Source: Octopus vulgaris
Lineage: Eukaryota
Assembly: GCA_951406725.2 (NCBI GenBank)
Contig: OX597828.1
Coordinates: forward strand, 55,614,001 to 55,678,000
DNA: 64,000 nucleotides
Direction of reading: 5' to 3'
The position numbers and the translations under genes were made by a program. The notes beneath the pieces are model-generated. The model made no database searches. It had not been told where the DNA came from and saw nothing but the letters and a program-made list of their open reading frames with translations. Below are positions 4,124-49,580 of this stretch, piece by piece (within the stretch, counting starts at the first letter, position 1; each line of letters starts with the position of its first letter).

Positions 4124-5192
4124 TTCATTTATTGGTCACTTTCCCACTACTAACCCTCTTTCAAACGCACGAGTGGATGTTCCACTGACTGCATTGCCCA
4201 CCTGGTAGAGGGTAGTGAGTGCTGGGCAACATTCCAGATGCCAGTCACCCTGTCTCAGTGTCTACTTGACCCAGGACTGCAGCTCAATCAAGGAGACGAG
4301 CTGACGAAAGGCCTGTTTGACAAACGGCGACCATACATGTTCACCATTTAGGCAAAATATCTGGAGATTCCGCTGCCTCAGCGCATATCTGCTCATCATT
4401 AGCCACGGCATGCCCAGGCCTCCACGTAGAGGCTGCTGGTAGCAGATGGACCGCCTTACCAATGGAACCTCTCCGCTAGAATTTGAAGAGGAGGCGCTCC
4501 AACTTGGCTAGGCACGACGGTCAGGCGGTAGTAGATGACGGACGCGATTTACGCATTCGCCACCTCCGACTGACCTTTCAGTGACAGCCCATTTCTGGGT
4601 GAGACTGGTTACCCTGGTCGTTACGTCGTCCCAGTTCTTAACCACCTTGAGGTTTGGTCCGAACTAAACCTCAATCAACTTTACCGGTTCGTCAGTCCAG
4701 CACCCAACGACGCTGTTGGACGTCATAGACTTGCCTCTATAGGTGCCGAATTGCAAGCCCACTGACTTTTCAGCGTTAAATTTTTGCTCCCGTCAATTTT
4801 TCATATTCCTCCAATGATGTGCCTACCAACTCGATATCTGAAGTGTCCGACACCATCATCTTGATGTCGTCCGCATAAGCCAGCACAGCTCTTCTGCGTC
4901 CCGGTTCGAGCGGGCTACCCTGCAGCAGCTCTATCTTCCGCAGTATAGGCTCAAGAGTCAATACTACAGAGAGGAGGAGTGAGGACACCCTTGACGGACC
5001 GATCGAGAGATCTGAAACGGTTCCGATAGGTGGCAATTAACTTTGACCATCAAGATGCCACTGTGCATTGCAGCGATCCAACCTCTGAAGATAGGGCCGA
5101 AGCTACCCGATTTCAGCACAGCCTCCAGATACCGGTGGTCGAACTTATCGAATGTTTCCATTGATCTAAATTAATTAGAAACTTCCCCGAAA
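4124..5192 (-). mobile_element. Decayed non-LTR retrotransposon reverse transcriptase fragment, L1/Tx1-like
   Basis: Frameshifted minus-strand ORFs give RT motifs INLDQ..(K)TFDKFDHRYL, SVRQGCP, AYADDI and YEKLTGAKI. Confidence 0.9.
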
Positions 5193-26036: not shown

Positions 26037-26431
26037 CAACAGCAAAATTAAGGAACGGCCATAATAGGCCGTTCAACCCACTAGAAATAGCAGCCAAGGC
26101 TTCAACCGCAAAAAAATATTAATTCCGTAATTTTAGGTCAGATATAGCCGAGACAGTAGTGGTGCTGCCTCGTGTAAATATCTCTCCCGTCTGGCTTTCT
26201 TTACTGATGAATCTGTTAGCCTATGGAGGATTAGTTTGATTTAATTTAATCAGGCTGATTTACCATTAAAAAATAGATGAAACGATGCATTGTATAAAGT
26301 ATAACAGGGTAAATGTTTTTAAAATTTTCTCCTTGTTTACGGAATTAATATTTTTTTTGTGGTTGAAGCCTTGGCTGCTATTTCTAGTGGATTGAACGGC
26401 CTATTATGGCCGTTCCTTAATTTTGCTGTTG
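26037..26431. mobile_element. Fold-back PLE terminal structure: ~94-bp inverted arms enclosing an HHR
   Basis: Arms 26037-26130 and 26337-26431 are near-perfect reverse complements. Confidence 0.85.
26199..26299 (+). ncRNA. Type I hammerhead ribozyme with canonical core and extended stem II
   Basis: CTTTA-CTGATGA-ATCTGTT…AATAGAT-GAAAC-GATGCATT-GTA-TAAAG; stem I CTTTA/TAAAG; quasi-palindromic stem III; predicted cleavage after 26294. Confidence 0.85.
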
Positions 26432-26558
26432 AATTTATTAATAGTCTCTGACTATTTCCTTTTTCCCACTAGACCGCTGGTGGCAAATAATTTCTGCTGA
26501 ATTTTTTGCTACCCTATATTGATTAATTATATATATATACATATACATATACGTGTGC

Positions 26559-48940: not shown

Positions 48941-49580
48941 ATATATCAAGAGTAAATCCCACAGTCTCTACGTTGGGCAAAACATCTCTAATGGTTAATT
49001 TACCTATAAATGTAGGCATACATGTAGATACATACGTACATATATACATAAATGCATATACACACACACATATACATACATGCAAATTTGGGTATATGTG
49101 TGCGTGCGCATGTGTGTGTATATACACGTGTATGTAAATAGGTGCGATACGTACACAATCAATAAAATAATGTATTTCTGTAGGTGTATGAGCAAGGAAA
49201 GCTAGCAATAATTGCTATATACTAATCGGAGAATTTTACCTCGCGTTCCCATGTTTCCCCAGCTAACTCTCATCAGCATAATTAAGCTGTCTTCGATGTA
49301 ATCAGGCTTACCACAAACTAGTTAAGTTGTTCTCGATGTAATCAAGCTGACAGCATTGTTACTGAACTCTTTTCTTTTTCTCAGTGGAACCAGAACAGTC
49401 TCAATTCGAGAAACTCACAATAACTTTCCAACCTTAATGAAACTAAAATGACACCTACGCTTAATTTCGGTTTCCTATACGTAACTGCAAGAAATTCAGG
49501 AAATCACGCACGAGCACAAGAGAGGAAGAGAGAACGATAGAGAGGAAGAGATAGAGCGAAGCAGAGAGAAGGAAAGTGAG

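Follow-up and report, generated by a model that had tools for sequence, protein, structure and literature searches.

The insertion in the window and its hammerhead motif

The window, that is, the whole 64-kb stretch of octopus DNA analysed here, lies in a 2.8-Gb, microsatellite-rich genome. It contains an insertion formed by two arms in the head-to-head orientation, each belonging to a repeat with a 484-bp monomer. A target-site duplication is not discernible within the (TA)n microsatellite on its flanks. The features are as follows.

26037..26529, no strand assigned: whole two-armed head-to-head insertion, (TA)n on both flanks
26037..26130, minus strand: inverted arm made of unit positions 290-383, its end being the 'short' 3' site beside (TA)n
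26129..26529, plus strand: forward arm, lacking its 5' part, with positions 81-482 of the 484-bp monomer, up to the 'long' 3' site
26337..26431, plus strand: part of the forward arm pairing with the inverted arm
26394..26415, plus strand: 8-bp hairpin immediately upstream of the short 3' site, repeated in mirror image at 26053-26074
26432..26529, plus strand: 'tail' of about 100 nt between the short and long 3' sites, on one arm only
26199..26299, plus strand: type I hammerhead motif, cut predicted after 26294
26199-26203 and 26295-26299, plus strand: stem I, CUUUA/UAAAG, 5 bp
26204-26210, plus strand: hammerhead core CUGAUGA
26211..26278, plus strand: stem II, 68 nt, with a 7-bp base, a 4-bp middle helix and a 12-bp distal hairpin
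26279-26282, plus strand: hammerhead core GAAA
26283-26292, plus strand: stem III, CGA-UGCA-UUG, 3 bp, palindromic loop
26292-26294, plus strand: GUA site
26367, 26380 and 26386, plus strand: candidate A-to-I sites, A>G in contigs

The first-pass annotation described near-perfect inverted arms at 26037-26431, each with an 8-bp hairpin. The arms are real (94 and 95 bp, complementary in 92 of 95 columns, with one gap) and so are the hairpins, with the loops ATAATA in the left arm and TATTAT in the right one, but the element continues 98 nt further, to 26529. The inversion joint is private to this locus, the arms overlapping there by 2 nt (AA), and the fold-back has an energy of -213.6 kcal/mol (z = -23.7). 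A 16-nt motif at 26372-26387, together with its mirror, also occurs in two unrelated loci, L227 and L234, and is apparently a common host repeat.

The motif at 26199-26299 has the CUGANGA, GAAA and NUH core and the three helices that define, at the sequence level, a type I hammerhead; the core, the GUA site and the 5-bp stem I are as first annotated. The claim of a stem II of about 68 nt with three helices also holds, all three being present in the MFE folds. Stem II departs from the canonical form, in which a G10.1-C11.1 pair opens a 4-bp helix II with a contact between loops 1 and 2: here its base is A-U at 10.1-11.1. Stem I is 7 bp in most family members and only 5 bp in the window copy because of T at 26198, where 69 of 72 matched copies have A and three have T. 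An Rfam scan of the 64-kb window gave no matches at the gathering score.

The suggestion that this is the best ribozyme candidate fared less well, given the single hammerhead, the 5-bp stem I, the dimer-type stem III and the fold. The stem II helices and the fold-back do appear in folding, but the hammerhead fold as a whole is not the MFE one: it lies within 0.3 kcal/mol of the local MFE, and its ensemble penalty is 1.9 kcal/mol in the local fold, close to the smallest values seen in the family (0.9-8.7 kcal/mol), and 5.5 kcal/mol inside the fold-back. By its letters, the 3-bp palindromic stem III is of the kind that would need a dimer. With one hammerhead and without unit positions 1-80, the copy therefore cannot release a monomer; it would make a poor, weak ribozyme candidate and is probably a dead-end stump.

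Two contigs come from runs (X1 and X2) that are only guessed to be RNA, belong to the same study, have depths of 5-6, which we do not take as expression levels, and lack matched DNA. The X2 contig (26076-26385) spans the private inversion joint and the predicted cut site, uncut, and has two differences from the window, both A>G (26367 and 26380). The X1 contig (26139-26436) carries the window letters at 26198, 26218 and 26360, also spans the predicted cut site uncut, and shows A>G at 26367, 26380 and 26386. Such changes are absent from the contigs of runs X9 and X10, and among genomic copies G stands at these three positions in 1 of 210, 0 of 221 and 0 of 17, respectively. This suggests a plus-strand transcript with an A-to-I edited fold-back, at least partly uncut.

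A tandem repeat family with two fixed 3' ends

A DNA search yielded at least 149 matches, from the 40 candidates scored out of 1459. The natural unit is 484 bp, and the loci mapped to it show tandem and head-to-head arrays in (TA)n. The period and the tandem junction are in the same register at independent loci, and the head-to-tail joint keeps one register across subfamilies. A 16-nt stem III pattern produced 61 matches against one in the control, and a less strict stem II pattern matched exactly at 1824 places, with none for the reversed control. The latter uncovered younger subfamilies with units of 488-497 bp and arrays of up to 9.35 units; the 20 loci studied for them were chosen among the first 100 listed of the 1824 matches, those with multiple matches being favoured. 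One of these loci, L168, has seven complete units over its two arms with no more than one substitution between them, as against 2-50 between units of different loci. The two arms within a locus are mostly 95-100% alike, the medians to other loci being near 93%. Contigs of the family were found in runs guessed to be RNA.

No PLE (Penelope-like element) ORF is joined to the unit in the 50 loci whose frames were read (L001-L030 and L118-L137), and tblastn of two PLE proteins over all loci to L187 produced matches only in separate neighbours, none joined to the unit. Likewise, no ORF, LTR or linked RT was seen in the loci examined, a subset of the 1824 matches, nor did these loci contain a contiguous RT and GIY-YIG ORF sharing the repeat, as would be expected of an autonomous PLE. 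In the family, units that code for nothing stand in tandem and each holds a type I hammerhead, as in non-LTR retrozymes, the window copy itself being a sub-monomer stump. By its sequence, this copy is a truncated representative of an ORF-less tandem repeat of about 490 bp, of the non-LTR retrozyme type. The earlier reading of the fold-back as an inverted partial pLTR of a PLE insertion is right as to the PLE-type inverted fold-back, but the arms derive from a non-coding tandem unit and not from the pLTR of an ORF-bearing PLE.

The hammerhead stems are conserved in other family copies, as the first-pass annotation had proposed to check. In 32 distinct copies, 95.7% of stem cells are paired, with three two-sided changes. 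In 27 copies covering several subfamilies the fraction is 93.5%, against 27-45% in slid-partner controls, and two-sided changes occur at nine of 34 pairs, in all five helices, these counts overstating the number of independent events, as the copies are related. The long stem II is also kept across subfamilies; its base in the 27 copies is A-U in 21, G-U in one and unpaired in five. Judging by the aligned copies, selection acts on the hammerhead within the family. The loop of stem III is palindromic in almost all copies (UGCA, UAUA), a feature tied to hammerhead dimer action in the available part of PMC4209133.

The 3' ends of the arms fall at two sites of the unit, at about 380 (short) and about 482 (long), approximately 100 nt apart. 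Overall, a short end is combined with a long one in 46 of 51 inverted loci; two short or two long ends occur in none, and five loci have one atypical end. In the first set, 57 loci selected for their similarity or for a match to the stem III pattern (two of them, L047 and L048, being a local duplicate), 36 are inverted, 33 of these with a short and a long end and three with one atypical end. The second set of 20 gives 15 inverted loci, 13 and two, respectively. An inverted 5'-truncated arm and a one-sided tail, the marks of PLE-type insertion, are present in the family loci.

The lengths of the arms and the inversion joint differ at every locus; the two arms are of independent length, and their 5' ends rarely match. 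We rejected the readings in which the arms are a constant component of the element or terminal repeats like those of MITEs, since arm length and joint vary per locus. Because each locus has a private inversion joint and private arm lengths, the mirror-image arms are, on this sequence comparison, a by-product of insertion and lie outside the repeat unit. The predicted cut site is not a preferred place of 5' truncation: four of 93 arm ends fall at unit positions 240-252, with 2.5 expected. Eleven of the 93 fall at positions 466-8, near the long 3' site, with 5.2 expected, as if RT stalled on completing one round or on meeting the second primer. The short ends of the 57 loci mostly read TTTT(GCT)2 followed by the TA repeat (21 cases), one or three GCT also being seen, while internal copies read GCTGTTG (43). 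Telomerase-like slippage at RT initiation is a possible source of the variable GCT count, as is a non-templated first base.

Several loci have peculiarities of their own. In L170 and L171 private variants recur at period 3 within the arrays, and in L169 one arm shares variants absent from the other; a trimeric template, later duplication or an assembly effect may be responsible. In L003 (1146-1360, 2290-2486) a piece of flanking host DNA has been captured, inverted, between the two arms, and in L006 (2378-2900) a fragment of a mariner-like transposase interrupts one arm. The flanks of L014, L026, L075 and L130, and those of L104 and L139, reveal two more hammerhead-ended families beside (TA)n, in one of which about 65 nt separate the short from the long ends.

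Known retrozymes, Penelope-like elements and candidate drivers

Metazoan non-LTR retrozymes, as presented in the available parts of Cervera and de la Pena 2020 (PMC7229834) and Li et al. 2026 (10.64898/2026.07.22.740005), are likewise ORF-less tandem repeats with one type I hammerhead per unit, a GC content of about 36%, dispersal as monomers to multimers and a self-paired monomer (the circular fold z being -5.0 to -9.3 here). The likeness is one of sequence, with cleavage predicted and circles putative. The unit of 484-492 nt exceeds the 170-400 nt of retrozyme RNAs in PMC7229834 and is within the 51-972 bp range of 10.64898/2026.07.22.740005. Unlike the retrozymes of these two sources, where stem II is about 4 bp with a G-C base, the family has a 68-nt stem II with A-U or A.C at its base; the head-to-head arms and fixed ends were not found described for metazoan retrozymes in the same parts.

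These ends resemble those of EN+ Penelope-like insertions, which, according to excerpts of PMC8557442 and PMC3846280, have a 5'-truncated inverted arm and a tail of 30-40 nt on one end; two fixed internal RT start sites and an AT-rich target are also shared (same excerpts and PMC11167929). The differences from the excerpted insertions are the absence of an ORF, the tail of about 100 nt and arms that may each hold several units. Hydra-clade PLEs have the (TA)n target, a hammerhead near the 3' end and often a non-G-C stem II base, as far as the accessible sections of PMC8557442 go, although the Hydra hammerheads published there have a short stem II as opposed to 68 nt here. The Hydra families of the present genome follow the same end rule, and some share the long tail and long stem II; unlike the unit, they encode RT and endonuclease, and they have no convincing DNA homology to it. 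The window element thus belongs to an already known kind, the non-LTR retrozyme, with PLE-type ends.

An intact element encoding 727 aa lies beside locus L005 (L073, 1498-9093) in the tandem-plus-inverted form, with a 70-nt tail. Pfam has no family for its ORF; the RWK, DKT and CxCX5C motifs, compared with section 11 of PMC8557442, the part available, place it by sequence in the Hydra clade. All 150 scored matches of this family are 98-100% identical; it is very young, with many near-identical copies. Its inverted pairs are short plus long in eight cases of eight, with the 70-nt tail. The same holds for both inverted pairs of a Hydra family of about 980 aa (tail about 115 nt, stem II 60 nt), and in a group of about 900 aa stem II is 47-56 nt and the tails are longer, about 140-150 nt. 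As the long stem II and long tails occur in several Hydra families, they are Hydra traits in this genome. The families with a stem II of 47-60 nt are represented by loci L222-L225 and L236, and by L227-L229 and L235; a descriptor made for short stems would overlook hammerheads of this kind.

An autonomous element clearly homologous to the unit at the DNA level was sought at 20 long and 30 short loci of the Hydra clade and at 30 of the 727-aa family, and none was seen there. The best similarity is to the pLTR of the 727-aa family: under one scoring it ranks above all of 300 shuffles, its nhmmer E is about 7, and its score is reached by one of 400 genomic controls for two of the three queries and by seven of 400 for the window copy. 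In this alignment the hammerhead cores do not fall into register. Candidates among the other Hydra families were dropped, as they offered only a 16-nt motif resembling a common host repeat and weak alignments. A partner search by the short-end junction gave 23 new places, and the 20 fetched were 19 family stumps and one chance match, with no PLE ORF. None of the autonomous Hydra elements is a proven partner of the repeat; still, a Hydra-clade PLE is the driver that we would moderately favour.

Proposed mechanism and alternatives

We consider it very probable that the window element is a non-LTR retrozyme stump pasted into a TA microsatellite in trans by the RT/endonuclease of a PLE, probably one of the Hydra clade. 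Array transcripts would self-cleave, probably as dimers via the palindromic stem III loop, and be ligated into circles. The PLE enzyme would nick both target strands, and two cDNAs would begin on one RNA, one per fixed site, each running a variable distance of 0.05 to 9 units before their 5' ends are joined head to head. In the window copy they would have stopped after 94 and 401 nt, giving the fold-back, whose arms would pair into a duplex in a read-through transcript that ADAR may edit.

A cleaved linear monomer was rejected as the template, since many arms cross the cut site and the 5' ends do not pile up there; the template is therefore a circle or an uncut multimer. The long identical arrays on both arms lead us to favour, from sequence comparison, rolling on a circle, as proposed for retrozymes in the accessible part of PMC7229834. 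A PLE origin of retrozymes is argued from pLTR homology in the available text of 10.64898/2026.07.22.740005, with the mechanism left open. In vitro, an anole PLE uses two adjacent internal RT start sites and cuts both strands, and its hammerhead is dispensable for insertion (PMC11167929). A more specific version, in which the arrays would record the step still missing from the picture of Penelope and retrozyme integration, is speculative, and we would sooner expect it to fail than to hold. In it, a dimeric Hydra-clade RT would use one circular hammerhead RNA to prime both target strands, at two obligatorily different sites, and roll round it, with telomerase-like GCU-triplet slippage at the start; the hammerheads would form a new subclass of Hydra type, whose conserved 68-nt stem II would bind a protein or control activity.

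The same retrozyme might have acquired its arms by fold-back self-priming on an antisense template, a model that the available part of PMC3846280 proposes for rotifer PLEs, or be driven by Neptune or Naiad elements, which also target microsatellites (PMC8557442, in part). We regard this as rather unlikely: fold-back alone leaves unexplained both the always-different fixed sites and the independent arm lengths with their rarely matching 5' ends, while the long tail, the long stem II and the non-G-C stem II base occur in Hydra elements. It is less probable still that the unit is a pLTR stump of an undiscovered autonomous PLE, its arrays arising without circular RNA by template jumps on a short linear RNA or by later tandem duplication. 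The ends, tail and target are indeed those of PLEs, the ORF check covers a fraction of the family (100 of 1824 matches listed), and the period-3 and arm-private variants of L169-L171 fit later duplication. However, none of the loci examined links an ORF to the unit, subfamilies share a single register of the head-to-tail joint, and both arms of L168 are multimeric and identical.

We give very little credence to the window copy being an active, host-relevant cassette, with the arms as a functional clamp and the hammerhead cutting a host transcript at 26294. Its core is intact, its fold is at most 0.3 kcal/mol from the local MFE, and the X1 and X2 contigs, with locus-private letters and A>G in the arm, suggest plus-strand transcription. 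Yet both contigs run uncut through the predicted site, arm length and joint differ at every locus, stem I carries a rare mutation (T at 26198), the ensemble penalty reaches 5.5 kcal/mol in the fold-back, and no host-gene exon was recognised by eye among 126 open frames of at least 90 aa, so that the host gene of the first-pass annotation stays putative.

It is the family-level end rule that is of interest; taken alone, the copy in the window is of small importance, unless a read-through transcript carries its fold-back in edited form. The mobilisation of animal retrozymes is stated as open in the available parts of PMC7229834 and 10.64898/2026.07.22.740005, as is the origin of PLE inverted ends with a one-sided tail in those of PMC11167929 and PMC3846280. 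A young high-copy family, a near-absolute short/long rule, identical multimeric arms and candidate drivers with intact ORFs in one genome make both questions testable in vitro. We found no paper on octopus retrozymes or long-stem-II PLE hammerheads; the supplements of PMC7229834 and 10.64898/2026.07.22.740005, outside this search, may list the family.

The window-wide repeat search was dominated by microsatellites. Other CUGANGA motifs occur in the window at 4301, 6159, 27514, 51172 and 53025 on the plus strand and at 49276 and 22969 on the minus strand; several are followed by GAAA and TA repeats and are probably the ends of other PLE families.
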